Positions 22,050-61,261 of a stretch of 64,000 nt of DNA are shown here, piece by piece (the first letter of the stretch is position 1; each line of letters starts with the position of its first letter). The DNA lies in the NCBI RefSeq assembly GCF_044324875.1, contig NZ_CP172185.1; one strand, written 5' to 3'. The stretch comes from Escherichia coli (GTDB lineage: Bacteria; Pseudomonadota; Gammaproteobacteria; Enterobacterales; Enterobacteriaceae). Below the pieces are notes generated by a model. That model ran no database searches. It was not told where the DNA came from and saw only the letters and a program-made list of their open reading frames with translations. The position numbers were made by a program, and so were the translations under genes.

Positions 22050-22053
22050 GCGT

Positions 22054-22785: not shown

Positions 22786-22873
22786 AGGTATAACCTGCGA
22801 GCATGACGCCACCAATTCCGCCTAACGCCATAAACAGGAACAGGGCGATGACCCCAATTTTAGCTATGCGCAT
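22766..22873 (-). CDS. yohO: 35-aa small membrane protein YohO
   Basis: Manual translation gives [35 protein letters not shown] followed by a stop. It overlaps the yehW 3' end convergently, as in K-12. Confidence 0.8.
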
Positions 22874-22932
22874 AATGCACTCCTTATGTTAACGAAAGGA
22901 TTGTACAGTAAAGCGCATTTGTTAACGAATCA

Positions 22933-23622
22933 TTAAATGCCGAGTGGGAAAATATCATGGCCTTGTTCCTGCCAACTGGTAAGTTGCTGCTGTTGGGCGG
23001 AGGTTCGATTTTCACCGCACCACACCAGCAATGTACGGCCTTCGAACAGTTCAGGGCGTAGTTGATTGAGCGAGTGGGCGAGGACATCAATGCGCCATCC
23101 TTGTTGACTGGCAATCCAGCCCTCCAGCCATAGACGGGTGGTATCGTGAATATTCCAGCCAACCACCAGCGCATCTTTACCCTGTTTTTTACGTGCCGAA
23201 GCCAGGCAAATGGCGATGTAGTTGATCAGTACGCCGTCAAGGATCGCCAGCAGCGCCTGGAGGGTCGGTTGTTGGCACTGAAGTCGTCGGCGCAGAGGAA
23301 TAAACAGATGCGTGGTGAGTGTCTGGGCAGGGTAATCCTGACCGCGCTCTTTGATCCACGTTCGCAGGCTATGCAGATTGCCGCTTTGCAGGTAAGTCAG
23401 TAATGTTTCTTGCTGATCGCGCCAGCCGTTCTGCACATCAACATTTTCATTACTGAGCAGCATTTTAACTTTGCTGACCTGCACGCCGTTGTCGATCCAG
23501 CGTTTGATCTCGCGGATCCGGTCAATATCGGCATCGTTGAACAGCCGATGGCCGCCGTCTGTCCGTTGCGGTTTCAGCAATCCGTAACGCCTCTGCCACG
23601 CGCGTAACGTGACAGGGATTAA
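22933..23622 (-). pseudogene. mlrA: MerR-family curli regulator MlrA (YehV), 5'-truncated by prophage insertion
   Basis: The frame reads ...PVTLRAWQRRYGLLKPQRTDGGHRLFND... to ...GHDIFPLGI and a stop. From recall of the 243-aa protein (MALYTIGEVALLCDINPVTL...), the first ~15 codons, the start codon and the promoter are missing. Similarity ends at about 23,615-23,625, next to a phage integrase gene. Confidence 0.85.
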
Positions 23623-23654
23623 GGGTAAACTAACTGATTTTACAAGTTTTTATT

Positions 23655-24941
23655 TTACCCCACTTTCTTATGGGGCATACATGGGACACTTTCAGATAGT
23701 CTTTTGTTAAGGAGTTCTATCTGTTCGTGATTGTTGTCTTTCATCCATGCTCCGTAAACATTGAATACCATTTGTGCGTTTGTGTGGCCCATCTGGCTTG
23801 CGATAAAACTAGGATTAGCTCCAGCGGCAAGTGACCAGCATGCATAAGTATGCCTGGATTGGTACGATTTTCTGTGTCTCAGACCTGCGCGTTTTAAGAT
23901 ACTTGTCCATGACTCCCTGATGGAGTCAACCTTATAGTGCGGTCCGGAAAACTGCCGCTGTTTTATTACCTGAGGACTAAAAACAAAAGTGCATTTATGC
24001 ACAGTACTTCTCCCATATTCCCTCTGCTTTACCTCTACAGAATGTTGCTTTCCAAGCATGGTCATTTCCGCCTGACTTTTAAGAGCATCAATAGCTGGTT
24101 GAACCAGATGAATTGTCCTTCCGGTGCCAGCATCGGTTTTTGGTGGAGTGAATTCGCCAAGTTTTGTATAATTCCTACGGATGGTTATAGTCCTTGCTTT
24201 AAGGTCTATATCTTCCCATGCCAGCGATACCAACTCCCCGTGACGAATACCCGTGTATACAGCGAGAATCCACAGGTTTTTTGTTTGTTGATGACGGCAA
24301 GCCTCAATAAAACGAATAAATTCGTCACGGGTGAGAGGATCTGGTTTTACCTTGGACTTTTTTAAGGGAGCCAGACCGTTAAATGGGTTTCCTGAGGTAT
24401 AACCATTATCTGTTGCAAATTGAAACATTCCAGCTATGGTTGTCATATAGTAGTTTACCGTGACCACTGAGCGCCCTTTTATGGAAGAAGTCTTTCCATT
24501 AGAAAGCTTTTGGTAACCGGTCAACAAATCTCTCCTTACGAAAAGTAAATCCTCTTTTGTTATGGATGAAACCAGTTTTTTTTCACCTAACATTGGTAAC
24601 ATGTTTTTAATTACTGACTGGTAACGGTTAAGTGCATTCGCACAAATCTCAATTTTCTTAAGGTCCAACCATTTTTCCGAAAGTGCCTTAACGGTTATCT
24701 CTCTTTTTCCCAGACCAAAGTGTTTCAGGTTAGGGGAATTAGGGAACTGCGCGGCGTAGTCGAAACTCCCCATTCTGATTGCAAAACAAACGGAAGTGCG
24801 AAGTTCACCTGCGATCTTCCGGTTTTTGGCGGTGTCAGGAACACCGAGGTTTTCTCTGACACGTTTGCCATTATAGTGAAACCATATACGGAGTGATCCT
24901 CCATGGTTTTCAACGCCTGTCGGGTATGATACGTTACTCAT
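23655..24941 (-). CDS. int: Tyrosine-recombinase phage integrase
   Basis: 428 aa with C-terminal catalytic-domain motifs (GIRHGELVSLAWEDID, SRHTYACWSLAAG, GHTNAQMVFNVYGAW). It abuts the truncated mlrA. Confidence 0.93.
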   Translation of the reverse strand: MSNVSYPTGVENHGGSLRIWFHYNGKRVRENLGVPDTAKNRKIAGELRTSVCFAIRMGSFDYAAQFPNSPNLKHFGLGKREITVKALSEKWLDLKKIEICANALNRYQSVIKNMLPMLGEKKLVSSITKEDLLFVRRDLLTGYQKLSNGKTSSIKGRSVVTVNYYMTTIAGMFQFATDNGYTSGNPFNGLAPLKKSKVKPDPLTRDEFIRFIEACRHQQTKNLWILAVYTGIRHGELVSLAWEDIDLKARTITIRRNYTKLGEFTPPKTDAGTGRTIHLVQPAIDALKSQAEMTMLGKQHSVEVKQREYGRSTVHKCTFVFSPQVIKQRQFSGPHYKVDSIRESWTSILKRAGLRHRKSYQSRHTYACWSLAAGANPSFIASQMGHTNAQMVFNVYGAWMKDNNHEQIELLNKRLSESVPCMPHKKVG

Positions 24942-24974
24942 TAAACCTCCCAGACGTCCAGGAGCATTAACAGG

Positions 24975-25229
24975 TTAACCGGAACTTGCATTTTTGGCAC
25001 CTGGTTGTTTCTGGTTTTCGATCCATCGCATAATTTCTTCGATGTTGTACAGGCATTCACTGTAGTGCCCCGGATCACCTTCTACAGCGTAATGGCGGTA
25101 TTCTTTTCCCTGCATCCATGACTTTCTTCTTGCCCGCTCAATGGTGCCAGGCTTTAGCCCTGTTGATGCAATGAGGACTCTCTCCGTACACCATTTGCTG
25201 GGGGTTATCTGATAGATGATTGTCTGCAT
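24975..25229 (-). CDS. xis: Excisionase-like protein (DUF1233-type)
   Basis: 84 aa immediately upstream of int. The motif KWCTERVLIASTGLKPGTIERARRKSWMQGKEY resembles putative-excisionase family members I recall. Confidence 0.7.
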   Translation of the reverse strand: MQTIIYQITPSKWCTERVLIASTGLKPGTIERARRKSWMQGKEYRHYAVEGDPGHYSECLYNIEEIMRWIENQKQPGAKNASSG

Positions 25230-25247
25230 GCCAACCTCATAAAATTT

Positions 25248-25382
25248 TCATCCACGGCAGTGGCACCACACATCAAACATTCGCTTCACAACTTCACGAC
25301 AGTAGAAGCCGTCAACATCTCGCGTCAGGTCATAGCGATTGCCATAACGCTGGCGCACCCATAGTTCAAATGCTTTATTCAT
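25248..25382 (-). CDS. Hypothetical 44-aa protein
   Basis: Manual translation gives MNKAFELWVRQRYGNRYDLTRDVDGFYCREVVKRMFDVWCHCRG. It has an AAGGA Shine-Dalgarno-like sequence upstream and exactly fills the gap between its neighbours. Confidence 0.5.
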   Translation of the reverse strand: MNKAFELWVRQRYGNRYDLTRDVDGFYCREVVKRMFDVWCHCRG

Positions 25383-25385
25383 TCT

Positions 25386-25628
25386 TTACTTCCTTTTCAT
25401 GGCCCGTAATTTTTTCAGATGAGCTTCCTGCTCTGTTTCTGCCAGAATTTGTCGGTATTCCTGGTGATCGAGCCGTTCAAACAGTTCATTAAAATCGTTT
25501 ATTTTTACCGACTGTGTTCTCCCATCCATTCTTCTGTACAACACAGTGTTGTTTATGCAGCGAATAATTTTTACCGGGTAGCCAGCACTATCGGTGTATA
25601 TCTGACCACGTTGAATCAGAGCGAACAT
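25386..25628 (-). CDS. Hypothetical phage protein (DUF4222-like)
   Basis: 80-aa ORF, tightly packed in the leftward operon. The family assignment is from memory only. Confidence 0.65.
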   Translation of the reverse strand: MFALIQRGQIYTDSAGYPVKIIRCINNTVLYRRMDGRTQSVKINDFNELFERLDHQEYRQILAETEQEAHLKKLRAMKRK

Positions 25629-37709: not shown

Positions 37710-38813
37710 TCAGAACTGATAAGTCAAACCAACAGCGACAATATCATCGGTTAATACATCAGTTCTTTCAGTGAATTGATTCTTATCAAGCAGGTTGATT
37801 TTATAGTCTACGTATGTAGACATATTTTTGTTGAAGTAATAAGCAGCACCGACTTCAATGAATTTTTCAATGTATCCGTCATTATGTTTTTCAGGGATAC
37901 CAGTTTTGGTGGAAAGGTCTTTGGCTTTCGACTGGATATAAGCAAGAGACGGGCGCAAACCAAAGTCGAACTGATACTGTGCAACTACAGCGAAATCTTC
38001 AGTTTTATTGGCTACACCGTTGTAGCCGCCGGGCGAGTACTTGATTGCGCGGGTATTACGTGTTTCACCATAAGTGGCTGCCAGGTACAGATTATTCGCG
38101 TCATATTTTACGCTGGTAGCCCACTGTTCAGCTTTTTTACCTTTACCAAAAGTCGTCGCTTCCTGTGCATTGGTGCGATCGGCTGCACCATATGCAGCTA
38201 CAAAACCAAAGCCTTCATATTCATAACTGACAGAGCCGCCAACACCGTCGCCGTTTGAAGTGCCTGCATTGTCACGCTCATTTTTACCCAGATACTGAAC
38301 CGCAAAGTTCAGTCCATCAACCAGACCGAAGAAGTCGGTATTACGGTAAGTGGCAACACCACCTACACGACCCACGAAGAAGTTATCCCCGTTAACAGAA
38401 CCAGGCCCAAATTCAGGGAGGACATCAGTATAGCTTAATGCGTCATACACCACGCCATAGTTACGACCATAATCCAGAGAGCCAATATTTTCTAGTTTCA
38501 GGCCAGCGTATGCCAGACGGGTTTTGTCTCCTGCAGAGCCATCTTTTTCTGCCTTGTTGCCTTTGAATTCATATTCCCATTGACCAAAACCAGTTAACTG
38601 ATTGTTGATTTGGGTTTCACCTTTGAATCCAAGACGGGCATAAGTTCCATCACCTTCTTCTTTGGCGTTAGAAGAAAAGTAATGTTTACCCACTACTTTG
38701 CCATATAAATCCAGTTTATTACTGTTTTTATTATATATTTCTGCTGCATTTGCAGACATTGCCAGAAATACTGATGCTGCTACAGCAGAAAGTGCCACTG
38801 TTAAATTTTTCAT
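37710..38813 (-). CDS. Prophage-encoded general porin (OmpC/OmpF/NmpC/Lc family)
   Basis: 367 aa with a signal peptide ...[10 protein letters not shown], the porin motifs LDLYGKV and GFGQWEYEF, and a C-terminal ...VGLTYQF. Confidence 0.92.
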
Positions 38814-39263
38814 TTTTTATCCTCTGGTGGGAGTTAATTGGACGACAAAATGCTATCAGGATGAAAATTTAATTTCTGTGTATAATGTATACAAGGAAAA
38901 TTAAGGAGTCCGATTCTTTATATGTGACCACCATCACAAAATAAGAAGTCATGCAAGCTAATAAATAGATGGCTATCTTTCACTCAAAAAATTAAGATCA
39001 ATCTTTTTTATTAGAAGTGCTAAATATATTTAATTATTTGGGGTTGTGAGTTATTTATATAACCTTAATAAAGACATTACTTTTGAAGAAAAATACGTGC
39101 ATAGAAGAATGCATAATCTTTAATTACATCTTGCCAAGCGTCGCAACAATCCAGAGATTGTATGTGGGGTGAATCATGCAGCATGCAGGGTATGAACAAA
39201 CACTTTACGATCGTAAAAGTATGCATATCATGGTAAGAGTGGTTCCTACGCCACACAACTTAA

Positions 39264-40910: not shown

Positions 40911-41444
40911 ATGAACGCAAAAATCAGATACGGCCTGTCGGCTGCCGTTCTGGCGCTGATTGGTGCTGGCGCATCTGCTCCTCAGATACTTGATCAGTTT
41001 CTGGACGAAAAAGAGGGTAACCACACAACGGCATACCGCGATGGGTCCGGCATCTGGACCATCTGTCGGGGTGCCACGATGGTGGATGGAAAACCCGTTT
41101 TTCCCGGAATGAAGCTGTCGAAGGAAAAATGCGACCAGGTTAACGCTATTGAACGTGATAAGGCACTGGCATGGGTGGAGCGCAATATTAAAGTACCTCT
41201 GACCGAACCACAGAAAGCGGGTATTGCGTCATTCTGTCCCTATAACATTGGCCCCGGTAAGTGTTTCCCGTCGACGTTTTATAAGCGGCTTAATGCCGGT
41301 GATCGAAAAGGCGCCTGCGAGGCGATTCGCTGGTGGATAAAGGATGGTGGGCGTGACTGCCGTATCCGTTCAAATAACTGCTATGGACAGGTTATTCGTC
41401 GTGACCAGGAAAGCGCATTAGCCTGTTGGGGGATAGATCAGTGA
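40911..41444 (+). CDS. R: SAR endolysin (GH24 lysozyme, P21 R type)
   Basis: 177 aa. The N-terminal weakly hydrophobic Gly/Ala-rich segment [21 protein letters not shown] is SAR-like. The catalytic region is [20 protein letters not shown]. Confidence 0.88.
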
Positions 41445-41908
41445 GCAGAGTCGCCGCGATTATTTATGCTCTGGTTATCTGCATCATCGTCTGCCTGTCG
41501 TTGGCGGTCAATCATTACCGTGATAACGCCATAGCCTACAAAGAACAACGTGATAAAAAAGTCAGTGAGCTGAAGCAGGCGACCGCCACCATCGCTGACA
41601 TGCAGCAGCGTCAGCGTGATGTTGCTGCGCTCGATGCAAAATACACGAAGGAGTTAGCTGATGCGAAAGCTGAAAATGATGCTCTTCGGCGCAAGCTTGA
41701 TAATGGTGGCAGGGTGCTCGTCAAAGGAAAATGCCCTGTGCCATCCTCAGCCGAAACCTCCAGCGCCTCCGGCATGGGCAATGATGCCACCGTCGAACTC
41801 TCTCCAGTTGCTGGACGAAACGTTCTCGGTATCCGGGACGGAATTATCCGCGACCAGACAGCACTGAGAACGCTTCAGGAATACATCAGGACGCAATGCC
41901 TTCGATGA
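41441..41908 (+). CDS. Rz: Spanin, inner-membrane subunit Rz
   Basis: 155 aa from a GTG start ([31 protein letters not shown]...). Very close to lambda Rz as I recall it. Confidence 0.88.
41661..41867 (+). CDS. Rz1: Spanin, outer-membrane lipoprotein subunit Rz1 (embedded in Rz, +1 frame)
   Basis: [19 protein letters not shown] lipobox followed by a proline-rich segment [11 protein letters not shown], as in lambda Rz1. Confidence 0.8.
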
Positions 41909-42082
41909 TAGCGATAATTTTACTCATCATCCTTCACATCTGGCTCTGTAGACAGGGTGGTGATCACTTCTGGAGTGAATCCAGATTAAACATCTCATTG
42001 CTGATGCTTGATATTGAGCATCTGGCGCGCGGTAAGGGGCTGCGTTGAGATAAGAGCCAGTCATTAAAAATACCTGGATTTA

Positions 42083-42109
42083 GCCTCGCATTCGCGGGGC
42101 TTTTTTATT
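42083..42109 (+). terminator. Intrinsic terminator after the lysis cassette
   Basis: gcctcgc-attc-gcggggc stem-loop followed by ttttttatt. Confidence 0.75.
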
Positions 42110-42540
42110 GCCATTACAAAAGCCACTCCCTACAGAGTGGCTTTGATAATGGCTTATACCCTACACGGGATAACTTAACTGATATCCCTTTTAACGGATA
42201 AAGGTATTCAAGCCTGACACATCATGCGCTGTATCGTCGCTGTATTCCCGCATTAACCATGACCGTAGCCCGACGGGGAACTCCTTCTGCGCGAGTGTGC
42301 GGGAATAATCAAAAACGATGCACACCGGGTTTTTACCGCGCTAATGATTCGCGGGTTTGTCCCTCATGCTCGCCAGTCCGGTGCGATGGTGGAAGAAACC
42401 GGAAGCTGTATTACAGAAAGTGCTACTACTGTATCCTGATGCGATGTATGTAATGTGAGTCAGATAATGGCACAGGATGTGGTGATGTGGCAGTCTGGAA
42501 CACAGGATATATTGTCAGAATAAGACCCGTAGGAATAAAA

Positions 42541-42867
42541 ATGAAAAGACGCCTTTCACTACTTTTTCTGTTATCTGCCCTGGCAGTGGGATGCTCGCAG
42601 CAAAAAGCTGATGAGCCCCGGCAATTAGTGACGGTGTATCCACGATATCCGGAATATGCTGCAGCAAATTATATCAAGGGGCTGGTTGAGGTTAAGTTCG
42701 ATATTGGTGCTGACGGGACTGTGACACGGATCGTTTTTCTCCGCTCAGAGCCTCATAATTTGTTTCGTGATGAAGTGGTGAAGGCCATGGCGAAATGGAG
42801 ATTTGAAAAGAATAGTCCCCGTCAGGGAGTGAAGAGACAATTTATCTTTACGCCATCACGTCCCTGA
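42541..42867 (+). CDS. Lipoprotein consisting of a TonB C-terminal-like domain
   Basis: 108 aa. The signal peptide has the lipobox LAVGC followed by Ser (+2). The segment YPRYPEYAAANYIKGLVEVKFDIGADGTVTRIVFLRSEPHNLFRDEVVKAMAKWRFEK parallels the E. coli TonB CTD ([54 protein letters not shown]) as I recall it. Confidence 0.8.
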   Translation: MKRRLSLLFLLSALAVGCSQQKADEPRQLVTVYPRYPEYAAANYIKGLVEVKFDIGADGTVTRIVFLRSEPHNLFRDEVVKAMAKWRFEKNSPRQGVKRQFIFTPSRP

Positions 42868-43231
42868 TGCTTCCAGGTAGAGAGGGGCTGGAAGCAGGAG
42901 AAAAATGAAAGAGCCAGCGGTTATATTTTTGTCATGGCTGACGAGAAATGATGGAAGAAGGCGTTGTATGCCACACAACGCCTCACTGTTCATTTCTTCT
43001 TTTTCTCTGGTGTAACCCGATGAATAAGAGTTGCACTGGTTTCCGATGAGATGGCGATATGCTCGGGCAAAGTATGCTGGCAGTTTTCCAACTGGTCAAA
43101 AATACCTGCTCTCGTCTGTTGCAATGCCTGCAGCATGCGGCGGCAATGCGCCTTTGCTTTTGCTAACCATCTTTCCTTACTCTATCAGTCGCTGCGTGAA
43201 CTCATCATGGAATACCAGGTAAATGCGGATG

Positions 43232-43483
43232 TTATCGGTTTTGGCTACGCAGCATAGTACAAAACGGACAGGTGCATCCCGGAATGGGGGAGGCGTCACA
43301 TGTCCCTGTGATGGTTGTTCCGGGTAATGCACTGTGTGGGGCATAAAAATGTCCGATAATTTTACTTTCTACCGCAGTTAGTTGATTCGTTGGTCCTGGT
43401 AGCACATTGGGCGAGGGTTTAAATGCCAGGCAACTGAAGGATGATGTTGCAAGGGAGATAGCGAGAATATTTCTGATTTTCAT
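43232..43483 (-). CDS. Secreted 83-aa Cys-rich protein of unknown function
   Basis: From MKIRNILAISLATSSFSCLA (signal peptide). The mature part contains GTCDASPIPGCTCPFC. The track ORF is extended upstream. Confidence 0.6.
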   Translation of the reverse strand: MKIRNILAISLATSSFSCLAFKPSPNVLPGPTNQLTAVESKIIGHFYAPHSALPGTTITGTCDASPIPGCTCPFCTMLRSQNR

Positions 43484-43602
43484 TTGATGATGCCTCTGTG
43501 TGAAATGACGGTAAACGACGCACTTGTGCCGGCACATAATAGCAAGCATCAGAATAGATCAGATTCGATTCTTGCTGTAAGTGATAATTATTCTCGTTTT
43601 TT

Positions 43603-43730
43603 TCGGGTCCTTTCCGGCGATCCAACAGGTTACGGGGCGTCGACCTCGCGCAAAACAACTCCTTATGAAATTTTTACGGGAAATTCAGATCCGTTCTTCT
43701 TTCTTGTAAGTCATTGTGTATATTGAATTT
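43603..43730 (+). other. cos: cos region (cosQ-cosN-cosB); cosN 12-nt cohesive-end sequence at 43635-43646
   Basis: tcctttccggcgatccaacaggttacg|GGGCGTCGACCT|cgcg... parallels the lambda right-end and left-end sequences (...GATCCGACAGGTTACG | GGGCGGCGACCTCGCGGG), with one mismatch in the 12-mer. Confidence 0.85.
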
Positions 43731-43838
43731 TATTTGTTCTGAGAAAGGATCTGATAAGGCTTCGTTTCGCCTGAAAAGGCAGTTTTAAGATCCTTTCTTA
43801 AAAAAACGGGTCATTTTCTTGCTGGAGGGGATGCTGGT

Positions 43839-44387
43839 GTGAGGGTTAACAAGAAAAAGCTGGCTGAGATTTTTGATGTTGATGTGCGGACTATATCCAC
43901 CTGGCAAAATCAGGGGCTGCCGCTGATATCAGGCGGCGGGAAAGGGAATGAAGCGATTTTTGATACGGGAAAAGCGATTGAGTGGTTCGCTCAGCGTGAG
44001 GCCGACATTGAAAATGAAAAACTTCGTAAGGAAGTCGACGATATGCGCGTGGCTGCTGAGTCGGATCTGCAGCCCGGTACGATTGATTACGAACGCTACC
44101 GTCTCACAAAAGCACAGGCAGATGCGCAGGAACTGAAAAATGCTCGTGAGGAAGGGCTGGTTCTTGAAACGGAATTATTTACCTACATTTTTCAGCGAGT
44201 TGCGCAGAATATATCCGGGATCCTTGTTCGTGTTCCGCAGACACTGCAGCGTAAATACCCTGATATATCACCAGCACATCTTGATGCTGTGAAAACTGAA
44301 ATCGCGAAAGCATCCGATGTGGCTTCTGAATCAGGTGAGAATGTGTGCAGGTGGATTGATGATTTCAGACGAGCTGAGGGCGGCTAA
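43839..44387 (+). CDS. nu1: Terminase small subunit
   Basis: 182 aa with a GTG start after GGAGGGG. Resembles lambda Nu1 (…NKKKLAEIF…GGGKGNE…IENEKLR…[25 protein letters not shown]). Confidence 0.9.
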
Positions 44388-46287
44388 CTCTACAGGAGCG
44401 ATAACGACTGGTCTCCTTGCGCTAAAAATTCCTGTACCCCTGACGACAGTTCAGTGGGCAGATCAACATTATTACCTGCCGAAAGAGTCGTCTTACACAC
44501 CAGGGCGGTGGGAAACATTGCCGTTTCAGGTTGCCATAATGAACAGTATGGGTAATGACCTGATCCGCACTGTTAATCTGATTAAATCTGCCCGTGTTGG
44601 TTATACAAAAATGCTGTTGGGAGTGGAGGCTTATTTTATTGAGCATAAATCCCGCAACAGTCTGCTTTTTCAGCCCACGGACTCAGCTGCTGAAGATTTT
44701 ATGAAATCTCATGTTGAGCCAACGATAAGGGATGTTCCTGCATTGCTGGAGCTGGCTCCATGGTTCGGAAGAAAACACCGCGATAATACGCTCACCCTGA
44801 AGCGTTTTTCCTCCGGTGTGGGGTTCTGGTGTCTGGGTGGTGCGGCAGCAAAAAATTACCGTGAAAAATCCGTGGATGTGGTCTGTTATGACGAGCTTTC
44901 CTCGTTCGAACCGGATGTTGAAAAAGAGGGCTCGCCAACCCTGCTGGGGGATAAGCGTATTGAGGGCTCTGTATGGCCAAAATCCATTCGCGGCTCGACG
45001 CCTAAAATCAAAGGCTCCTGCCAGATCGAAAAAGCCGCTAACGAGTCGGCACATTTCATGCGTTTTTATGTGCCCTGCCCGCACTGTGGGGAGGAGCAGT
45101 ATCTGAAATTTGGTGATGATGCCTCGCCTTTCGGTCTTAAGTGGGAGAAGGACAGCCCCGAAAGCGTTTTCTACCTTTGTGAGCATCATGGCTGTGTGAT
45201 CCATCAGTCTGAGCTTGACCAGAGTAACGGGCGGTGGATCTGTGAAAACACGGGGATGTGGACCCGTGACGGCCTGATGTTTTTCAGCGCCCGGGGTGAT
45301 GAAATTCCGCCGCCGCGCTCCATCACTTTCCATATCTGGACGGCGTACAGTCCGTTCACCACCTGGGTACAGATAGTCTATGACTGGCTGGATGCACTGA
45401 AAGATCCCAACGGCCTGAAAACCTTTGTGAACACCACGCTGGGCGAGACCTGGGAAGAGGCCGTGGGCGAAAAACTCGATCACCAGGTACTGATGGATAA
45501 GGTTGTGCGTTACACGGCGGCGGTGCCTGCCCGGGTGGTTTATCTGACGGCGGGCATTGACTCGCAGCGAAACCGTTTTGAGATGTATGTCTGGGGATGG
45601 GCTCCGGGAGAGGAAGCCTTTCTGGTGGATAAAATCATTATTATGGGGCGTCCCGATGAGGAAGAGACGCTGTTACGTGTGGATGCAGCGATCAACAAAA
45701 AATACTGCCATGCAGACGGAACCGAAATGACCATTTCCCGTGTCTGCTGGGACATCGGGGGGATCGATGGAGAAATCGTTTATCAGAGGTCAAAAAAACA
45801 CGGTGTTTTCCGGGTGCTGCCGGTAAAAGGCGCATCTGTCTATGGCAAGCCGGTGATCACCATGCCAAAAACCCGCAATCAGCGGGGCGTGTATCTGTGT
45901 GAAGTGGGCACGGACACCGCAAAAGAAATTCTCTATGCCCGTATGAAAGCCGCTCCCACGCCTGCGGATGAATCCACGTCGTATGCCATCCGTTTTCCTG
46001 ATGATCCGGAGATTTTTTCGCAGACAGAGGCGCAGCAACTGGTCGCGGAAGAGCTTGTGGAGAAGTGGGAAAAAGGAAAGATGCGTCTGCTGTGGGATAA
46101 CAAAAAGCGGCGTAACGAAGCGCTGGACTGCCTGGTGTATGCCTACGCGGCATTACGTGTGTCCGTGCAACGCTGGCAGCTTGATCTGGCTGTACTGGCA
46201 AAATCCCGGGAAGAAGAGACGACCCGGCCAACCCTTAAAGAACTGGCAGCGAAGCTGTCCGGAGGAGTGAATGGTTACAGTCGCTGA
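44359..46287 (+). CDS. A: Terminase large subunit
   Basis: 642 aa from [10 protein letters not shown], colinear with lambda gpA (…[22 protein letters not shown]…, KRRNEALDC…). Confidence 0.93.
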
Positions 46288-51794: not shown

Positions 51795-52114
51795 GGGAGT
51801 GAGTATGTATATCCGGGGTATGGAAAATGCCATTGAAAACCTGAGCCGTATTAACCGCAGTGCGGTACCCGGTGCGGCGGCGATGGCCTTAAACCGGCTG
51901 GGTTCTGCAGTCACTGCGCAATCGGCATCACAGGTATCCCGTGAGGTCAAAATCCCACGGAAATTTGTCCGTGAAAGGATGAAGCTAAAAAAGGCCACAC
52001 CAAAAAATCAGTCTGTCCGGATCTAGACTGGCCCCCTGAATCTCCAGACAACCAGTATCACTTAAATAAGTGATAGTCTTAATACTAGTTTTTAGACTAG
52101 TCATTGGAGAACAG

Positions 52115-52480
52115 ATGATTGATGTCTTAGGGCCGGAGAAACGCAGACGGCGTACCACACAGGAAAAGATCGCAATTGTTCAGCAGAGCTTTGAACCGGG
52201 GATGACGGTCTCCCTCGTTGCCCGGCAACATGGTGTAGCAGCCAGCCAGTTATTTCTCTGGCGTAAGCAATACCAGGAAGGAAGTCTTACTGCTGTCGCC
52301 GCCGGAGAACAGGTTGTTCCTGCCTCTGAACTTGCTGCCGCCATGAAGCAGATTAAAGAACTCCAGCGCCTGCTCGGCAAGAAAACGATGGAAAATGAAC
52401 TCCTCAAAGAAGCCGTTGAATATGGACGGGCAAAAAAGTGGATAGCGCACGCGCCCTTATTGCCCGGGGATGGGGAGTAA
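52115..52480 (+). CDS. insC: IS2 transposase OrfA (InsC)
   Basis: 121 aa ([26 protein letters not shown]...). Confidence 0.92.
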
Positions 52481-53343
52481 GCTTAGTCAGCCGTTGTCTC
52501 CGGGTGTCGCGTGCGCAGTTGCACGTCATTCTCAGACGAACCGATGACTGGATGGATGGCCGCCGCAGTCGTCACACTGATGATACGGATGTGCTTCTCC
52601 GTATACACCATGTTATCGGAGAGCTGCCAACGTATGGTTATCGTCGGGTATGGGCGCTGCTTCGCAGACAGGCAGAACTTGATGGTATGCCTGCGATCAA
52701 TGCCAAACGTGTTTACCGGATCATGCGCCAGAATGCGCTGTTGCTTGAGCGAAAACCTGCTGTACCGCCATCGAAACGGGCACATACAGGCAGAGTGGCT
52801 GTGAAAGAAAGTAATCAGCGATGGTGCTCTGACGGGTTCGAGTTCCGCTGTGATAACGGAGAAAAACTGCGAGTCACGTTCGCGCTGGACTGCTGTGACC
52901 GTGAGGCACTGCACTGGGCGGTCACTACGGGCGGCTTCAACAGTGAAACAGTACAGGACGTCATGCTGGGAGCGGTGGAACGCCGCTTCGGCAACGAGCT
53001 TCCGGCGTCTCCAGTAGAGTGGCTGACGGATAATGGTTCATGCTACCGGGCTAATGAAACACGGCAGTTTGCCCGGATGTTGGGGCTTGAACCGAAGAGC
53101 ACGGCGGTGCGGAGTCCGGAGAGTAACGGCATAGCAGAGAGCTTCGTGAAAACGATAAAGCGTGACTACATCAGTGTCATGCCCAAACCAGACGGGTTAA
53201 CGGCAGCAAAGAACCTTGCAGAGGCGTTCGAGCATTATAACGAATGGCATCCGCATAGTGCACTGGGTTATCGCTCGCCACGGGAATATCTACGGCAGCA
53301 AGCCAGTAATGGGTTAAGTGATAACAGGTGTCTGGAAATATAG
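52438..53343 (+). CDS. insD: IS2 transposase OrfB (InsD), normally expressed as an OrfAB frameshift fusion
   Basis: 301-aa DDE/RNase-H-fold ORF overlapping insC in the -1 frame. Confidence 0.92.
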
Positions 53344-53718
53344 GGGCAAATCCAGGATCGTGGTTAACCGGGGCGATTTTCCGGTGATCAAACTGGGTAA
53401 CGCCAGACTGCGACTGTCCAGGCGTAAACGTCGTCGAAAGGGCGAGCGTTCAGCCGAGAAAGGCGGAGGAAGTGTTCTTGTCGTGGGGAACCGCCGTATT
53501 CCGGGGGCTTTTATCCAGAGACTTAAAAACGGTCGCTGGCATGTTATGCAGCGGGAAGCAGGCCGAAATCGTTATCCTATTGATGTGGTGAAAATACCGA
53601 TGCAGGCTCCGCTGACGTCAGGGGTGCAGGAGAATATCACACGGTTGTACAGGGATAAGTTTCCCGCAGAACTGGCTGCCGCACTGAAACAGAAGATACG
53701 AATGGAGGTGAAAAAGCG

Positions 53719-54114
53719 ATGAAGCATACTGATATCCGCAATGCCGTGCTGAATGCGCTGGAGGAGACTACCGAGGGTGTGACGCTGTATGACGGACTGC
53801 CCGCCGTTATCGAAGACGGGGATTTTCCGGTTATTGCCGTTTATATCACGGATGCTGCATATACAGGTGAGGTGCTTGATGCGGATACGTGGGAGGCCAC
53901 TCTGCATATTAATCTGTTTCTTCCGGTCCAGGTTCCTGATGCTGAACTGGATGACTGGATGGAAAAACGCATTTATCCGGCGATTGAAAATATCCCCGCT
54001 CTGGCCGGACTGATAACCACCATGGTACCGCAGGGCTATGATTACCAGCGTGATCAGGACATGGGGTCATGGAGTGCGGCAGATCTGACTTATACCATTA
54101 CATACGATATGTGA
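53719..54114 (+). CDS. U: Tail tube terminator protein U
   Basis: 131 aa (MKHTDIRNAVLNALE...DLTYTITYDM), as in lambda gpU. Confidence 0.9.
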   Translation: MKHTDIRNAVLNALEETTEGVTLYDGLPAVIEDGDFPVIAVYITDAAYTGEVLDADTWEATLHINLFLPVQVPDAELDDWMEKRIYPAIENIPALAGLITTMVPQGYDYQRDQDMGSWSAADLTYTITYDM

Positions 54115-54123
54115 GGCTGAATA

Positions 54124-54861
54124 ATGACAACACCGAATCCGGCAGCACCGGTAAAAGGTGCAGGAACCACGCTCTGGGTATACACCGGAAAAGGGGATCC
54201 GTATGCGAATCCACTGTCCGATGTTGACTGGGAGCGTCTGGCAAAAGTGAAGGATCTGGCTCCCGGTGATATGACCGCTGAGTATTATGATGATAATTAT
54301 CTTGATGACGACGATGCGGACTGGGTTTCCACAGGGCAGGGGCAGAAGTCAGCAGGAGATACCAGTTTTACGCTGGCATGGAAACCCGGCGAAAACGGGC
54401 AGCGAGGGTTACTGGCATGGTTCGATCAGGGGGATGTTCGTGCCTATAAAATCCGCTTTCCGAACGGCACGGTGGATGTTTTTCGTGGCTGGGTGAGCAG
54501 TATTGGCAAAGCGATTACTGCAAAGGATGTTATCACGCGTACTGTAAAAGTGACCAATGTCGGACGTCCGTCTCTGGCGGAAGATCAGGGCAGTGTTACG
54601 GCGCTCACCGGTATTACCCTGACACCATCCACTCATACCTTGGCGAAGAACAGCACTGTGGATCTGACCGTGGCACTCCAGCCTGCGCGGGCTACCGATA
54701 AAACTTTCCGTGCCATTTCCACCGACACATCAAAAGCGACGATCAGCGTTAATGATATGACCATCACAGTGAAGGGCATCGCTGCGGGTAAATCGCAGAT
54801 CCTGGCCATCAGTGGTGACGGTCAGTTTGCGGCTGTCGCAGAAATCAATGTTACGGGCTGA
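54124..54861 (+). CDS. V: Major tail tube protein V (with C-terminal Ig-like domain)
   Basis: 245 aa with the position and length of lambda gpV. Confidence 0.9.
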
Positions 54862-54896
54862 TATCAGGCCTTTCTGCTTTTTCCGGAGTTTTACCG

Positions 54897-55301
54897 ATGT
54901 TTCTCAAAAATGAACCGTTTGAATATAACGGGCAGTCCGTCACGCTCACGGAACTGTCAGCCCTGCAGCGTATCAGCCACCTTGCCTTCCTGAAAGCGCG
55001 TGAAGAGGCTGAGGGGGGTGATGATATACAGGTGGCACTGGATGACACTATCCGGGAGGGGGCATACCTTGTGGCTATGTCACTGTGGCATACCCATCCT
55101 GTAAAGGGGACGCTGGGATCGCCGGAAGACGAAGAACGACAACTGATGAATGAGGTATTGCAGAGATGGCCGGTGGAGGCCATCTCTGCAGCATTCAGTC
55201 GTGTCATTGTTCTGTCGGGAATGGTGACCCCGGTACGGACCGCGCCGGAAGAGGAGGAGACTGAAGCGGTGACGGCGGGAAAGCCTTCGACAGTGAACTG
55301 A
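54897..55301 (+). CDS. G: Tail assembly chaperone G
   Basis: 134 aa. The slippery site lies near its 3' end. Confidence 0.88.
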   Translation: MFLKNEPFEYNGQSVTLTELSALQRISHLAFLKAREEAEGGDDIQVALDDTIREGAYLVAMSLWHTHPVKGTLGSPEDEERQLMNEVLQRWPVEAISAAFSRVIVLSGMVTPVRTAPEEEETEAVTAGKPSTVN

Positions 55302-55729
55302 ATTTTGTCCTGAGACTGGCGCGTGAGATGGGAAGACCCGACTGGCGCGCCATGCTGGCGGATATGTCATCAACGGAATATGCCGACTGGCATCAGTTTT
55401 ACCGTACGCATTATTTTCATGATGTGCTGCTGGATCAGCATTTTGCTGGGCTGACGTATACCGTGCTCAGCCTGTTTTTCAGCGATCCGGATATGCATCC
55501 GCTGGATTTCAGTCTGCTGAACCGGCGTGAGGCTGACGAAGAGCCTGAAGATGACGTGCTGATGCAGAAAGCAGCAGGGCTTGCCGGAGGGGTTCGTTTT
55601 GACCCTGCGGGGAATAAAGTCATCTGCATTGCCTCTGATGTGGAGGATATGACGGGGGATGGTGTCATGCTGATGACGATATCGGAAGGTATAGCAGGAG
55701 GTAGACGGTATGGCTCAACCGGTCAGTGA
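54897..55729 (+). CDS. G-T: Tail assembly chaperone G-T (-1 programmed frameshift product)
   Basis: The -1 frame from 55283 reads ...GKAFDSELNFVLRLAREMGRPDWRAMLADMSSTEYADWH... to the stop at 55727-55729, colinear with lambda gpGT. Confidence 0.8.
55277..55283 (+). promoter_or_regulatory. G GGA AAG -1 ribosomal frameshift heptamer
   Basis: The heptamer is in the correct X XXY YYZ phase of the G frame (codons GGA 55278-55280 and AAG 55281-55283). Confidence 0.85.
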
Positions 55730-56882
55730 TCTTGTCGTTGATATGACGCTGGATGCCACCCGGTTCAGCGAACAGATCAAAAAGGTCAGGCAGCATTTTC
55801 AGCAGGTGGACAGTGATGCAGGAAAAACGGCTGTTGCTGTTGAGCAATCCATGTCCCGGCAGGCGGAAGCTGCCCGCCGTGCCGGGATATCCATCGGTCA
55901 GTATAAGGCTGCGATGCGCACTCTGCCCGCGCAGTTTACTGATATCGCCACGCAACTGGCCGGTGGTCAGAGTCCATGGCTGATCCTGTTGCAGCAGGGC
56001 GGTCAGGTGAAGGACTCCTTCGGCGGACTGATCCCCATGTTCCGGGGACTTGCGGGGGCCGTTTCGTTACCAGCTGTCGGGGTGGGGGCTTTGGCTGCAG
56101 CGACAGGAGCGCTGGCGTATGCCTGGTACCAGGGTGACTCAATCCTGTCTGATTTCAGTAAAACGCTCGTATTGTCCGGTAATCAGGCAGGACTGACGGC
56201 AGATCGTATGCTGGCCCTGTCCAGAGCCGGGCAGGCAGCAGGGCTGACGTTTAACCAGACCAGCGAATCACTCAGTGCACTGGTTAAGGCGGGGGTACGC
56301 GGTGAGGCTCAGATTGCATCCATCAGCCAGAGTGTGGCGCGTTTCTCCTCTGCATCCGGCGTGGAGGTGGACAGGGTCGCTGAAGCCTTCGGGAAGCTGA
56401 CCTCTGACCCGACATCGGGGCTGACGGCGATGGCGCGCCAGTTCCATAACGTGACGGCGGAGCAGATTGCGTATGTTGCTCAGTTGCAGCGTTCCGGCGA
56501 TGAAGCAGGGGCATTGCAGGCGGCAAACGAGGCCGCAACGAAAGGGTTTGATGACCAGACCCGTCGACTGAAAGAGAACATGGGCACACTGGAGACCTGG
56601 GCAGACAAAACTGCCGGAGCGTTCAGAAGCATGTGGGACGCTATTCTGGATATTGGTCGCCCGGAGTCCTCTGCTGACATACTGGATAAGGCGCAGAAAG
56701 CCTTTGATGAAGCAGATAAAAAATGGCAGTGGTATCAGAGCCGCAGTCACCGACGGGGTAAAACATCTTCATTTCGTGCGAATCTTCAGGGCGCGTGGGA
56801 TGACAGAGTAAATGCGCAACTGGGGCTTTCAGCGGCCACACTGCAGGCTGATCTTGAAAAAGCCAGTGAGATGGCTGCAAAA

Positions 56883-57020
56883 TGGCATCTGAATCGATCG
56901 CAGTTTGGCATTCGAATCGATCATGATTTGGCATCCATCTCCGATCACAGTTTGGCATCACAATCGATCACGATTTGGCATGCTTCCGATCATTGATTGG
57001 CATCCTGCCAGTCACTCCGG
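56883..57020 (+). repeat. Six tandem ~23-bp subterminal repeats (TGGCAT-N4-8-(T)CGATCA-N3-5)
   Basis: The units are tggcatctgaatcgatcgcagtt, tggcattcgaatcgatcatgatt, tggcatccatctccgatcacagtt, tggcatcacaatcgatcacgatt, tggcatgcttccgatcattgat and tggcatcctgcc... About three related inverted copies lie at 59444-59514. Confidence 0.85.
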
Positions 57021-57077
57021 GAATTAACTCTTTTCACCACAGTCTCCATTGCCGTGTTTAAACCAGTGGAGACGTCA

Positions 57078-58643
57078 ATGTCCAGAAAGAGAAAATCCAG
57101 GAGCACTATGGAAACCTGTTTTAAGATCCTTCAGCTCAAGTTCGACAAGAAGCTGACTAACCGTTGTATCGGACTGACGTTACACATCAGCGCCTCAACC
57201 GTTTTTGAGGTTCTTGCCCGCTTCAAAGCCTCTTCTCTGTCATGGCCATTACCTGCTGATATATCCCATGACACGCTGGAGAAACTCATTTTTCCGCCCA
57301 AAGACACCTTTGCATCAGAGCTTGTAATGCCTGACATGTTGTACTTCGATACGGAAATGAGAAAACCAGGTGTGACGCGGCAACTGTTGTGGATGGAATA
57401 CAAGGCACAGGCGGGTAACAAAGCGATGGGATACTCGCACTTCTGCCGTTGCTACCGGGAGTGGAAAAAAACGCGACGTCTCTCCATGCGCCAGGAGCAT
57501 CGTGCCGGCGAAAAGCTTTTTATCGACTTCTGTGGTCCTACGGTTCCTGTTATTAATCCGGACACCGGTGAGATACGCCGCGTGGCAATCTTCGTGGCCG
57601 TAATGGGGGCGTCCAACTATACCTACGTTGAAGCGTGCGAAGGTCAGGACATGATGTCATGGTTAAATGCCCACAGCCGTTGCCTGACCTTCCTGGGCGG
57701 CGTACCGAAGCTGCTCATCCCCGATAACCTCAGAAGCGCAGTGAAAAAGGCCGATCGATATGAGCCTGTCATCAACGACAGTTATCAGGCACTGGCTGAG
57801 CACTATGGCACGGTTATCATCCCGGCCCGACCACGCAAACCTAAAGATAAACCAAAAGCAGAAAACGGCGTCCTCATCGTTGAACGATGGCTTCTTGCCC
57901 GCATCCGTAATGAAACCTTCCACACGCTCAGGGCGCTGAATGCGCGCCTTAGGGAGTTACTGACAGACATGAATAACCGGCCAATGAAGGGGTACGGCAA
58001 TCAAACCCGTGCAGAACGCTTCCGCATACTGGATGCGCCAGCACTCTCTCCGCTGCCTCTGGCACCTTATGAATACACGGAATACAAAGCTGTGAAGGTT
58101 GGCCCTGACTACCACGTTGAATATGCCCGTCACTGGTACTCCGTTCCACACGAACTGGTCGGTCAGCGTCTGTCACTGAAGGCGGGGCAGTCGGTGGTAC
58201 AGCTCTGGCACAAGGGGCAGTGTGTGGCGCAACATCCGCGCAGCACACATGAATATAAACACACAACCAATCCGCTTCACATGCCAGAGCGCCACCGGCA
58301 GCACGGGACATGGACACCGGAACGCCTGATCGAGCAGGGAAAACGTACGGGCCCGTCCACAGGCCGGGTGGTTGAATCCATGCTGAAGGCAAAACCCCAT
58401 CCGGAACTGGCTTATCGTGCAGTTCTGGGGCTGCTGGCACTTCAGAAAAAATACGGCCCGGAACGGCTGGAAAAGGCCTGTTACGTTGCCCTGCACTATA
58501 ACGCCCCTGACAGACGCTTTATCGACAATCTGCTGCGTCACCATCGGGAGAACCTGGAGCTTCCATTATCCCGCCAGGGCGAACAACATCCGGCATATGC
58601 TTCAGAGCATGAAAACCTGCGTGGTCCGGGCTACTACCACTGA
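57078..58643 (+). CDS. istA: IS21-family transposase IstA
   Basis: 521 aa from MSRKRKSRSTMETCFKILQLKF (HTH) with a DDE integrase core. The track ORF is extended upstream into the terminal repeats. Confidence 0.88.
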   Translation: MSRKRKSRSTMETCFKILQLKFDKKLTNRCIGLTLHISASTVFEVLARFKASSLSWPLPADISHDTLEKLIFPPKDTFASELVMPDMLYFDTEMRKPGVTRQLLWMEYKAQAGNKAMGYSHFCRCYREWKKTRRLSMRQEHRAGEKLFIDFCGPTVPVINPDTGEIRRVAIFVAVMGASNYTYVEACEGQDMMSWLNAHSRCLTFLGGVPKLLIPDNLRSAVKKADRYEPVINDSYQALAEHYGTVIIPARPRKPKDKPKAENGVLIVERWLLARIRNETFHTLRALNARLRELLTDMNNRPMKGYGNQTRAERFRILDAPALSPLPLAPYEYTEYKAVKVGPDYHVEYARHWYSVPHELVGQRLSLKAGQSVVQLWHKGQCVAQHPRSTHEYKHTTNPLHMPERHRQHGTWTPERLIEQGKRTGPSTGRVVESMLKAKPHPELAYRAVLGLLALQKKYGPERLEKACYVALHYNAPDRRFIDNLLRHHRENLELPLSRQGEQHPAYASEHENLRGPGYYH

Positions 58644-58659
58644 CAGAAGGAACAACAGT

Positions 58660-59415
58660 ATGAGTGATAACCTGTTAAACAAACTGACCCAACTGAAACT
58701 CCCGGCGATGGCCGGGAGCCTGATACGGCAGCGGGAAACGCCTCAGACCTACGACGAACTGTCGTTCGAGGAAAGGCTGACGCTGCTGGTTGATGACGAG
58801 CTTCTGAGCAGGGAAAACAGCCGTGTGGCACGGTTGAGAAAAAATGCCGGCCTGAAATACCAGGCAACACCGGAAGGGCTGCGCTATCCGGCCTCAAGAG
58901 GTCTGCGGGCTGAACAGATGAGAGAACTGCTGAACGGCCACTACATAACCCACAGGAAAAACCTGCTGATAACCGGTCCGACAGGATGTGGCAAGAGCTG
59001 GATAGCCAATGCGCTGGGCGAACAGGCATGTCGACAGAAACACAGCGTCCGGTACTGTAGAACCGGGCGATTACTGGAACAACTGGCTCAGGGACGTGTT
59101 GATGGCAGCTGGCTGAAATATCTGAAACAGTTGCAAAAAATACAGGTTCTAATCCTGGACGATCTGGGGCTGGAACAGTTAAGTAACGCCCAGTGTAATG
59201 ACCTTCTGGAGCTCATAGAGGATCGTTACGGACAAAGCAGCACGATAGTGGTAAGCCAGTTCCCGGTAGATAAATGGCATGGTCTGATGGAGAACCCAAC
59301 AACAGCAGATGCCATCCTGGACAGACTGGTACATAACTCACACCGAGTGGTCCTTCAGGGAGAGTCACTGAGGAAAAATCCCCCGGTAGTGGAAAGCAGC
59401 GAAAAAACGCGTTAA
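58660..59415 (+). CDS. istB: IS21-family helper ATPase IstB
   Basis: 251 aa from MSDNLLNKLTQLKLPAMA with Walker A GPTGCGKS and Walker B LILDDLG. Confidence 0.9.
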   Translation: MSDNLLNKLTQLKLPAMAGSLIRQRETPQTYDELSFEERLTLLVDDELLSRENSRVARLRKNAGLKYQATPEGLRYPASRGLRAEQMRELLNGHYITHRKNLLITGPTGCGKSWIANALGEQACRQKHSVRYCRTGRLLEQLAQGRVDGSWLKYLKQLQKIQVLILDDLGLEQLSNAQCNDLLELIEDRYGQSSTIVVSQFPVDKWHGLMENPTTADAILDRLVHNSHRVVLQGESLRKNPPVVESSEKTR

Positions 59416-60931
59416 AAAGCGGTAGAAAAAGTTAAGTTCCCGGTTGATCGAATGGATGCGAATCGCTGATCGGACTTCGATGCCAATCCGTGATCGAATA
59501 GAGCGGAATACGCAAGATGGCTGCAAAAGATCGTGCCGAATCAGAGGCTTCACGACTCAGGTACACTGAAGAGGCGCAGAAGGCTTACGAACGGCTGCAG
59601 ACACCGCTGGAAAAATATACCGCCCGTCAGGAAGAACTGAACAAGGCACTGAAAGACGGGAAAATCCTGCAGGCAGATTACAACACGCTGATGGCGGCGG
59701 CGAAAAAGGATTATGAAGCGACGCTGAAAAAGCCGAAACAGTCCGGCGTGAAGGTGTCTGCGGGCGATCGTCAGGAAGACAGTGCTCATGCTGCCCTGCT
59801 GACGCTTCAGGCTGAACTCCGGACGCTGGAGAAGCATGCCGGAGCAAATGAGAAAATCAGCCAGCAGCGCCGGGATTTGTGGAAGGCGGAGAGTCAGTTC
59901 GCGGTACTGGAGGAGGCGGCGCAACGTCGCCAGCTGTCTGCACAGGAGAAATCCCTGCTGGCGCATAAAGATGAGACGCTGGAGTACAAACGCCAGCTGG
60001 CGGAACTTGGCGATAAGATTGAACACCAGAAACGGCTGAACGAACTGGTACAGCAGGCGGAGAAATTCGCACAGCAGCAACGGGCAAAACGGGCCGCCAT
60101 TGATGCGAAAAGCCGGGGACTGACTGACCGGCAGGCAGCGCGGGAAGCCACGGAACAGCGCCTGAAGGAACAGTATGGCGATAATCCGCTGGCGCTGAAT
60201 AACGTCATGTCAGAGCAGAAAAAGACCTGGGCGGCTGAAGACCTGCTTCGCGGGAGCTGGATGGCAGGCCTGAAGTCCGGCTGGAGTGAGTGGGAAGAGA
60301 GCGCCACGGACAGTATGTCGCAGGTTAAAAGTGCTGCCACGCAGACCTTTGATGGTATTGCGCAGAATATGGCGGCGATGCTGACCGGCAGTGAACAGAA
60401 CTGGCGCAGCTTCACCCGCTCCGTGCTGTCCATGATGACAGAAATTCTGGTTAAGCAGGCAATGGTGGGGATTGTCGGGAGTATCGGCAGCGTCATTGGC
60501 GGTGCTGCCGGTGGTGGCGCATCAGTGTCAGGCGGTACAGCCATTCAGGCCGCTGCGGCAAAATTCCATTTTGCGACCGGGGGATTTACGGGAACCGGCG
60601 GCAAATATGAGCCAGCGGGGATTGTTCACCGTGGTGAATTTGTCTTCACGAAGGAGGCAACCAGCCGGATTGGTGTCGGCAACCTGTACCGCCTGATGCG
60701 GGGCTATGCGGAAGGTGGTTATGTGGGCGGTGCCGGAAGTCCGGCGCAGATGCGGCGGGCTGAAGGCATTAATTTTAATCAGAACAATCACGTGGTGATT
60801 CAGAACGACGGTACGAATGGTCTGCCAGGTCCACAGATGATGAAGGCAGTGTATGACATGGCCCGCAAGGGTGCCCGTGATGAAATTCAGGCACAGATGC
60901 GCGATGGTGGTCTGTTCTCCGGAGGTGGACG

Positions 60932-61261
60932 ATGAAAACCTTCCGCTGGAAAGTGAAACCCGGTATGGATGTGGCTTCGGCCCCTTCTGTAAGAAAGGTG
61001 CGCTTTGGTGATGGCTATTCCCAGCGAGCGCCTGCCGGGCTGAATGCCAACCTGAAAACGTACAGCGTGACGCTTTCTGTTCCCCGTTGGGAGGCCACGG
61101 CGCTGGAGTCGTTTCTGGCTGAGCACGGGGGCTGGAAGGCCTTTCTGTGGACGCCGCCTTATGAGTGGCGGCAGATAAAGGTGACCTGCGCAAAATGGTC
61201 GTCGCGGGTCAGTATGCTGCGTGTTGAGTTCAGCGCAGAGTTTGAACAGGTGGTGAACTGA
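60932..61261 (+). CDS. M: Tail tip protein M
   Basis: 109 aa at the lambda gpM position. Confidence 0.88.
   Translation: MKTFRWKVKPGMDVASAPSVRKVRFGDGYSQRAPAGLNANLKTYSVTLSVPRWEATALESFLAEHGGWKAFLWTPPYEWRQIKVTCAKWSSRVSMLRVEFSAEFEQVVN

Follow-up and report, generated by a model that had tools for sequence, protein, structure and literature searches.

What does a 108-aa lipoprotein that consists of little besides the C-terminal domain of TonB do in a lambdoid prophage of Escherichia coli? The question is raised by a gene in the window, that is, the whole 64,000-nucleotide stretch of E. coli contig NZ_CP172185.1 that was analysed here. The gene and its similarity to TonB are known from existing annotation and are not new. 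The same gene in phage 21 is CPT_21_73, named "TonB C-terminal domain protein", the copy in prophage Perceval is called "TonB fragment", and the NCBI name is "TonB family protein". The TonB-like label dates from the O157:H7 genome annotation, and the product name 'partial tonB-like' persists in one phage record. The literature searched yielded no work on the function of a natural TonB_C lipoprotein encoded by a phage. The gene, its parts and its surroundings are listed in Table 1.

Table 1. Features of the TonB_C gene and its surroundings in the window.
Feature	Position	Strand	Basis or remark
Endolysin	40911-41444	+	ORF; PGAP name in 99.5%-identical stretch of E. coli LH50-c
Rz i-spanin	41426-41908	+	ORF; PGAP name in LH50-c relative
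Rz1 o-spanin lipoprotein, embedded in Rz	41661-41867	+	ORF; PGAP name in LH50-c relative
Intrinsic-terminator-like hairpin (42082-42101) with T-run	42082-42111	+	downstream of lysis cassette
Candidate own promoter region	42463-42521	+	GATAAT 42463-42468; extended -10-like TGTCAGAAT 42513-42521
TonB_C-only lipoprotein precursor gene	42541-42867	+	108 aa; WP_029400675.1-type, 'TonB family protein'
Lipoprotein signal peptide (residues 1-17) and putatively lipidated Cys18, lipobox A-V-G-C	42541-42594	+	sequence reading
TonB C-terminal domain, residues 26-103	42616-42849	+	equivalent to E. coli TonB 153-230; HMMER alignment to 1u07, 2gsk, 2grx and DSSP of model
cosN cohesive-end sequence GGGCGTCGACCT	43635-43646	+	alignment to both ends of linear phage 21 genome
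Terminase small subunit	43839-44387	+	ORF; annotation of LH50-c relative
Terminase large subunit	44317-46287	+	ORF; annotation of LH50-c relative

The ORF starts with ATG, and a ribosome-binding site (AGGA) can be read 8-11 nt 5' of the gene. The N-terminus of the precursor reads MKRRLSLLFLLSALAVGC followed by SQQ and comprises a basic n-region, a hydrophobic core and the lipobox, with Cys18 followed by Ser at +2 and Gln at +3. The lipobox LAVGC and Ser+2 had been pointed out in the initial annotation, and direct reading of the 108-aa ORF agrees with it. The stretch LSALAVG-C, judged by eye rather than with a dedicated predictor, is [LVI][ASTVI][GAS]C-like and common to all alleles, and the lipobox is retained by the two E. 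coli subfamilies as well as by short relatives at a greater distance. By the Lol rule, a +2 residue other than Asp leads to default sorting to the outer membrane. Asp occupies +2 in no allele or distant short relative; the residue is Ser here and Thr or Ala in the relatives. Ser+2 and Gln+3 predict that the lipoprotein would be sorted by Lol to the outer membrane.

The mature part, which had been aligned by eye with TonB, was confirmed as a TonB C-terminal domain (CTD) by profile, PDB and model comparisons. It matches Pfam TonB_C (PF03544; E=2.6e-13, 50.7 bits against a cutoff of 24.6) and TIGR01352 tonB_Cterm (E=7.5e-13, 48.6 bits against a cutoff of 27.1), both above the curated thresholds. 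HMMER aligned query residues 22-103 with the E. coli TonB chains 1u07, 1xx3, 2gsk_B and 2grx_C at E of about 1e-14. The protein shares 38-41% amino acid identity with E. coli TonB over 80 residues. The NCBIfam TonB equivalogs NF008080-84 scored 46-67 bits against cutoffs of 265-448, with matches restricted to the last ~80 profile positions. No full-length equivalog match was therefore obtained, and by this measure the protein is not a TonB energy transducer. The 108-aa sequence contains a 17-residue signal peptide, the cysteine, a linker of just 8 residues between Cys18 and the domain start, and then the TonB_C domain. As the initial annotation had stated, the N-terminal TM anchor, the ExbB/ExbD-coupling motif and the proline-rich periplasmic spacer of TonB are absent.

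An AlphaFold2 model built from an 11-sequence family alignment reached a pLDDT of 86.4, with values >92 in the domain; a single-sequence run (pLDDT 48.6) was discarded. Foldseek comparison of the model with E. coli TonB CTD chains gave target-normalised TM scores of 0.89-0.92 and rmsd values of 1.0-1.4 Å, which bears out the fold assignment that the initial annotation had asked to be checked. The model superimposed on BtuB-bound TonB (2gsk_B) with an rmsd of 1.1 Å and on FhuA-bound TonB (2grx_C) with an rmsd of 1.0 Å, and, compared with these two chains and 1u07, it has the three-stranded sheet packed on two helices of the TonB CTD fold. A Foldseek search of the model against viral structures (BFVD) returned nothing at E<=1e-3.

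Numbering in the alignment is offset by 127, so that query residue n pairs with TonB n+127. The phage protein is identical to TonB at Y163, P164, F180, G186, F202, W213 and F230, and Y215 is replaced by F. These eight TonB residues are functionally important according to the mutagenesis literature. Three contact positions are altered: R158 is replaced by T, Q160 by Y (L in subfamily 2) and R166 by Y. In TonB these three residues have been linked by genetics or crystal structures to side-chain contacts with transporters. The phage protein is thus homologous to the CTD of E. coli TonB (P02929, ~150-239), with the same alpha/beta fold, YP motif, core aromatic residues and beta3 edge. It differs from TonB in these replaced residues, in its predicted lipid anchor in the opposite membrane, in lacking the TM helix with the ExbB/ExbD part and the proline-rich spacer, and in its Pro-rich tail, which ends at the position corresponding to TonB 235. 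The beta3 strand is present at residues 94-103, and beta3 of TonB forms an inter-protein sheet with the TonB box (PMC11658791).

The gene order on the late strand is holin, endolysin, Rz/Rz1, terminator-like hairpin, TonB_C gene, cosN and terminase. The cosN cut falls between 43634 and 43635, and cosN lies 767 bp 3' of the TonB_C stop codon, so the gene does sit between the lysis cassette terminator and cos, as had been proposed. The initial annotation had further placed it at the bor position. This holds insofar as the gene occupies the same lysis-to-cos moron zone as lambda bor, and fails insofar as it was meant as a replacement of bor. In phage 21, bor is located between Rz and the TonB_C gene, on the opposite strand to the latter, and the two genes occur together in 46 of 80 related viral loci from IMG/VR. 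They usually co-occur rather than alternate, and the TonB_C gene is therefore the usual neighbour of bor, not its substitute. Comparison with phage 21 found no bor within the window. Lambda Bor/Iss is an outer-membrane lipoprotein of lysogenic conversion, as is predicted for the TonB_C lipoprotein, but it has no similarity to the latter.

The block 42225-43634 shares 96% identity with the right end of phage 21. The lysis region is common to phage mEp460 up to 42403, beyond which mEp460 diverges and has no TonB_C gene, indicating that the gene is part of a module transferred together with the 21-type cos end. Around cosN, the cohesive end and the sequence to its left are 21-like, 43647-43941 (cosB and the 5' end of the small terminase gene) cannot be aligned to phage 21, and the alignment picks up again at 43942 (87%). 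This pattern suggests that a different cosB/Nu1 specificity may have been joined to a 21-type cosQ/cosN end. The flanking small ORFs matched PHROG families of unknown function or none, and no partner gene emerged among them. A dubious ORF at 42259-42453 has a weak partial match to a 'Rz-like spanin' PHROG family (E=6e-8). On the minus strand, an internal start in ORF 43232-43549 gives MKIRNILAISLATSSFSCLAFKP..., which resembles a signal peptide; this ORF has no PHROG match and no annotation in the related genome, and is possibly not a real gene.

LF82_160, the homologue in prophage Perceval, is transcribed 8-fold over the prophage background in the LF82 lysogen (PMC9928086), in line with the behaviour of a lysogenic-conversion gene. 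The gene thus resembles a moron in its variable position, in its absence from the close relative mEp460 and in the repressed-prophage expression known from the LF82 homologue. A stringent sigma-70 scan found no plus-strand promoter near the TonB_C gene. In a relaxed scan combined with an alignment of JLK-2012 and phage 21, both of the weak -10-like elements listed in Table 1 proved to be shared by the two subfamilies, whose upstream regions have otherwise diverged, and the region that holds them may be the gene's own promoter. The location in the late operon implies that Q-antiterminated transcription should also express the gene in lytic growth. No Fur box was found in 42100-42560, where the best match was only 11/19, so that iron regulation is unsupported.

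The position of the gene just 3' of Rz/Rz1 on the late strand, together with the lipoprotein nature of its product, also brings a spanin-like accessory role in lysis into consideration. The PHROGs family that holds the TonB_C lipoprotein, phrog_1267, is labelled 'Rz-like spanin' and matches over the full length (E=2e-40). The window, however, already has a complete Rz with embedded Rz1, which provide this function, and the globular TonB_C fold is not that of a spanin, nor is the protein a short proline-rich o-spanin. Expression of the homologue in a lysogen and the existence of some chromosomal homologues outside phages also argue against a role in lysis, which we regard as very improbable and close to refuted. 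The PHROG label most likely derives from gene position and lipobox. It is likely an annotation error that will spread to phage genome annotations.

The TonB_C gene was identified in 1,615 of 5,426 complete E. coli genomes (about 30%). In 1,224 of these it shares at least 95% identity with the gene in the window, and in 391 it shares 60-80%; the latter form a second subfamily that includes O157:H7. Among the matches listed in E. coli genomes, all are annotated "TonB family protein". Phage records with the gene are only 15 of 50,697, and comprise phage 21, ev017, Perceval, three PhiR phages, Stx1a phages, JLK-2012, Lys8385Vzw and a Klebsiella phage, whose copy is 41% identical. In the phage contexts inspected, the lysis genes always precede the TonB_C gene and the gene for the small terminase subunit always follows it. 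A survey of the cos-proximal site, which the initial annotation had called for, covered 80 IMG/VR loci, 69 of them with flanks long enough to judge the arrangement; the lysis-to-terminase order was found in 64 of the 69.

The ORF is intact in all 80 viral loci, which encode four protein alleles. A comparison of the two E. coli subfamilies gave a dN/dS of 0.12 (dS about 1.5), for signal peptide and mature part alike, and the gene is under strong purifying selection. Given this dN/dS value and the intact loci, the names "TonB fragment" and "partial tonB-like" are misleading.

Those database names are all that speaks for a dead remnant of a captured tonB. Such a remnant is hardly credible for a gene that has acquired a signal peptide and lipobox, is present in 1,615 genomes, is transcribed and has stayed intact in every viral locus sampled, and the selection analysis refutes it.

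An exhaustive HMMER search revealed a wider set of short proteins (107-133 aa) with a lipobox or signal peptide and a single TonB_C domain. In the genome scan, homologues with 39-49% identity were retrieved from Raoultella, Klebsiella sp., Erwinia and Sodalis. These proteins have the same lipobox and single-domain layout as the phage protein but differ from it in their mostly non-phage chromosomal neighbourhoods. The Sodalis homologue is flanked by an endolysin gene and a terminase gene. In Klebsiella, Raoultella and Erwinia, the chromosomal neighbours include lacZ, lacI, alpha/beta hydrolase, GNAT, panE and ABC permease genes, suggesting that the family has some phage-independent role. In Raoultella spp. 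and Klebsiella sp. R390, a gene for a secreted glycine-zipper protein (Rick_17kDa_Anti, SlyB-like) is located directly 5' on the same strand. The two genes are possibly a conserved pair that might hint at the native role.

The chromosomal homologues bear on the reading that the protein belongs to the envelope and uses the TonB_C fold outside the TonB system, for instance to bind peptidoglycan or some other component of the outer membrane, and could thereby have a Bor-like effect on envelope robustness, serum resistance or colonisation. Anabaena SjdR, a short TonB-like protein, acts on septal peptidoglycan and not in siderophore transport (PMC8597729). The unconserved R158, Q160 and R166, the frequent adjacency of bor (46/80 loci) and the lack of a Fur box in 42100-42560 are in keeping with an envelope role as well. 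SjdR, however, has an inner-membrane anchor and is no more than a distant relative. Moreover, the domain is closest to genuine enterobacterial TonB, with its best partial matches to the NCBIfam TonB equivalogs and ~40% identity; its beta3 edge is complete and its core aromatic residues are retained. We consider an envelope role unlikely on the present evidence, yet a serious contender.

The reading that we favour, if only tentatively, is that the gene encodes an accessory (moron) outer-membrane lipoprotein acting as a decoy for the TonB boxes of transporters or colicins. The Lol-sorted domain would hang from the inner leaflet of the outer membrane on its 8-residue tether, which would place it where the TonB boxes of transporters and of incoming TonB-dependent colicins emerge. 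Its free beta3 edge would pair with TonB-box strands as TonB does, and the domain would be unable to transmit force because it lacks the proline-rich rod, the TM helix and the ExbB/ExbD contact. It would therefore compete with host TonB as a natural dominant-negative form. Heterologous phages (T1, phi80, HK022 or N15 types), colicins and microcins that depend on TonB for entry would be expected to enter less readily, at the price of some loss of siderophore and B12 uptake. Being encoded in the late operon, the product might be abundant during lytic growth as well.

The initial annotation was not aware of any such mechanism. The principle, however, was already established for artificial exported TonB fragments: when TonB 33-239, 103-239 or 122-239 is delivered to the periplasm, transport that depends on TonB is inhibited (Howard, Herrmann, Stratilo and Braun 2001, described in PMC9841981 and bioRxiv 10.1101/2020.01.05.895219). 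According to these citing sources, the engineered fragments, with which the Postle laboratory repeated the experiment, inhibit ferrichrome and ferric citrate transport and are likewise energy-uncoupled and periplasmic. They are described there as artificial, soluble, overexpressed and longer (the shortest being 122-239), whereas the phage protein is natural, shorter and predicted to be tethered to the outer membrane. Given this precedent, the decoy mechanism would appear mechanistically sound. In work of the Postle laboratory (bioRxiv 10.1101/2020.01.05.895219), the contact between ExbD and TonB was disturbed by the soluble fragment, and it was proposed that this may be how such fragments inhibit, which leaves the target of inhibition under debate. 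This contact is probably out of reach for a domain tethered to the outer membrane, which would be confined to the transporter side.

Natural phage lipoproteins offer a second comparison. Cor (phi80, N15, HK022, mEp167) and T5 Llp are, as is predicted for the TonB_C protein, small phage lipoproteins of the outer-membrane inner leaflet, and they act on the periplasmic face of FhuA, a surface also occupied by TonB. They form their own family, with fold and sequence unrelated to TonB_C, and are FhuA-specific and allosteric; their genes lie near tail genes or are expressed early, in contrast to the TonB_C gene between the lysis genes and cos. PHROG and Pfam searches with the TonB_C lipoprotein did not return the Cor/Llp family, and PADLOC defence models gave no match. 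The C-terminus of phage 21 J resembles lambda J (47% identity), and the matches listed for it include no record of phi80, HK022 or N15. Nothing in this comparison indicates that the carrier phages themselves use FhuA or TonB.

In favour of the decoy are the complete domain with its beta3 edge and retained core residues, the lipobox, the purifying selection, the presence in 1,615 genomes, the survival of an intact copy in this IS-disrupted prophage, the transcription in LF82 and the precedents of the fragments and of Llp and Cor. Against it are the replacement of R158, Q160 and R166, the chromosomal homologues in Klebsiella, Raoultella and Erwinia, the possible ExbD-TonB target of the soluble fragments, and the negative Fur-box and PADLOC results. 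Stoichiometry also has to be considered. Transporters are far more numerous than TonB, so that masking of TonB boxes needs many copies, and lysogenic expression is modest.

Copy number bears equally on a different target, namely TonB itself. The tethered domain could poison TonB by holding the host TonB CTD in an unproductive heterodimer or by competing for partners such as Lpp. E. coli TonB CTD fragments crystallise as dimers, and 1u07, with two E. coli TonB CTD chains, is among the matches. The physiological relevance of these dimers is disputed, however, which counts against sequestration, and at 38-41% identity the dimer interface may be lost, leaving heterodimers a conjecture. Fewer copies would be needed in this case, TonB being far scarcer than the transporters (Higgs et al. 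2002, as cited in PMC9841981), and TonB-Lpp cross-links form in vivo (bioRxiv 10.1101/2020.01.05.895219). Taking both sides together, sequestration of TonB is improbable.

Returning to the decoy, its broadest form is rather doubtful: a prophage-borne dominant-negative TonB, carried by ~30% of complete E. coli genomes with O157:H7 and AIEC LF82 among them, that excludes TonB-dependent phages, colicins and microcins broadly and whatever their receptor, and perhaps retunes iron uptake. If the decoy mechanism holds, all TonB-dependent transporters would be affected at once, and the protein would represent a new class of prophage exclusion or immunity that mimics the host energy transducer rather than modifying one receptor. 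In its broadest form it would be the generalist counterpart of the FhuA-specific Cor/Llp and an anti-phage and anti-bacteriocin mechanism not yet described, and the homologues in the chromosomes of Klebsiella, Raoultella and Erwinia would act as brakes on TonB-dependent transport that the hosts themselves encode. In carrier strains, roughly one third of E. coli, a decoy would have consequences for phage therapy (T1-like phages and others that depend on TonB), for siderophore-conjugate antibiotics (cefiderocol, albomycin) and for the ecology of colicins and microcins. A natural inhibitor on the outer-membrane side could also separate transporter masking from ExbD interference. Even if the decoy reading is wrong, the gene encodes a very common, conserved and expressed prophage lipoprotein for which the names "TonB fragment" and "Rz-like spanin" need correction.

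Co-carriage with a metal importer was observed in a subset of the phages. All seven phage records with the 96%-identical gene (phage 21, ev017 twice, Perceval, PhiR47_2, PhiR57_1 and PhiR63_2) also have sitABCD, an inner-membrane Fe/Mn importer, located at 21967-25416 in phage 21 (OL657228). The window has no sitA, the carriers of subfamily 2 are without sitA, and 20 phage records have sitA without the TonB_C gene. SitABCD could offset a lowered TonB-dependent iron uptake, or the co-carriage may simply reflect common ancestry.

The prophage in the window starts near the mlrA-side integrase and is mosaic. An IS21-family element (56997-59415), with an istA-like ORF (56997-58643; rve and Mu-transposase C domains) and an IstB ATPase ORF (58417-59415), cuts the tape-measure gene into an N-terminal part (55710-56996; TMP_2) and a C-terminal part (59517-60935; Tape_meas_lam_C). 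A second insertion is marked by an IS3-type transposase ORF (52438-53343; HTH_21 and rve), which lies ~0.5 kb into the gap 51897-55274 where the alignment with the E. coli LH50-c prophage stops. These two IS insertions, one of which splits the tape-measure gene, indicate that the prophage is defective; the TonB_C gene is intact despite them. The related LH50-c prophage also has, with Q on one side and the tRNA genes and lysis cassette on the other, a gene for an NmpC/OmpC-like porin that is read from the opposite strand, and by homology a putative counterpart is placed at ~38000-39200 in the window. In Perceval, an NmpC porin moron is expressed alongside the TonB fragment.
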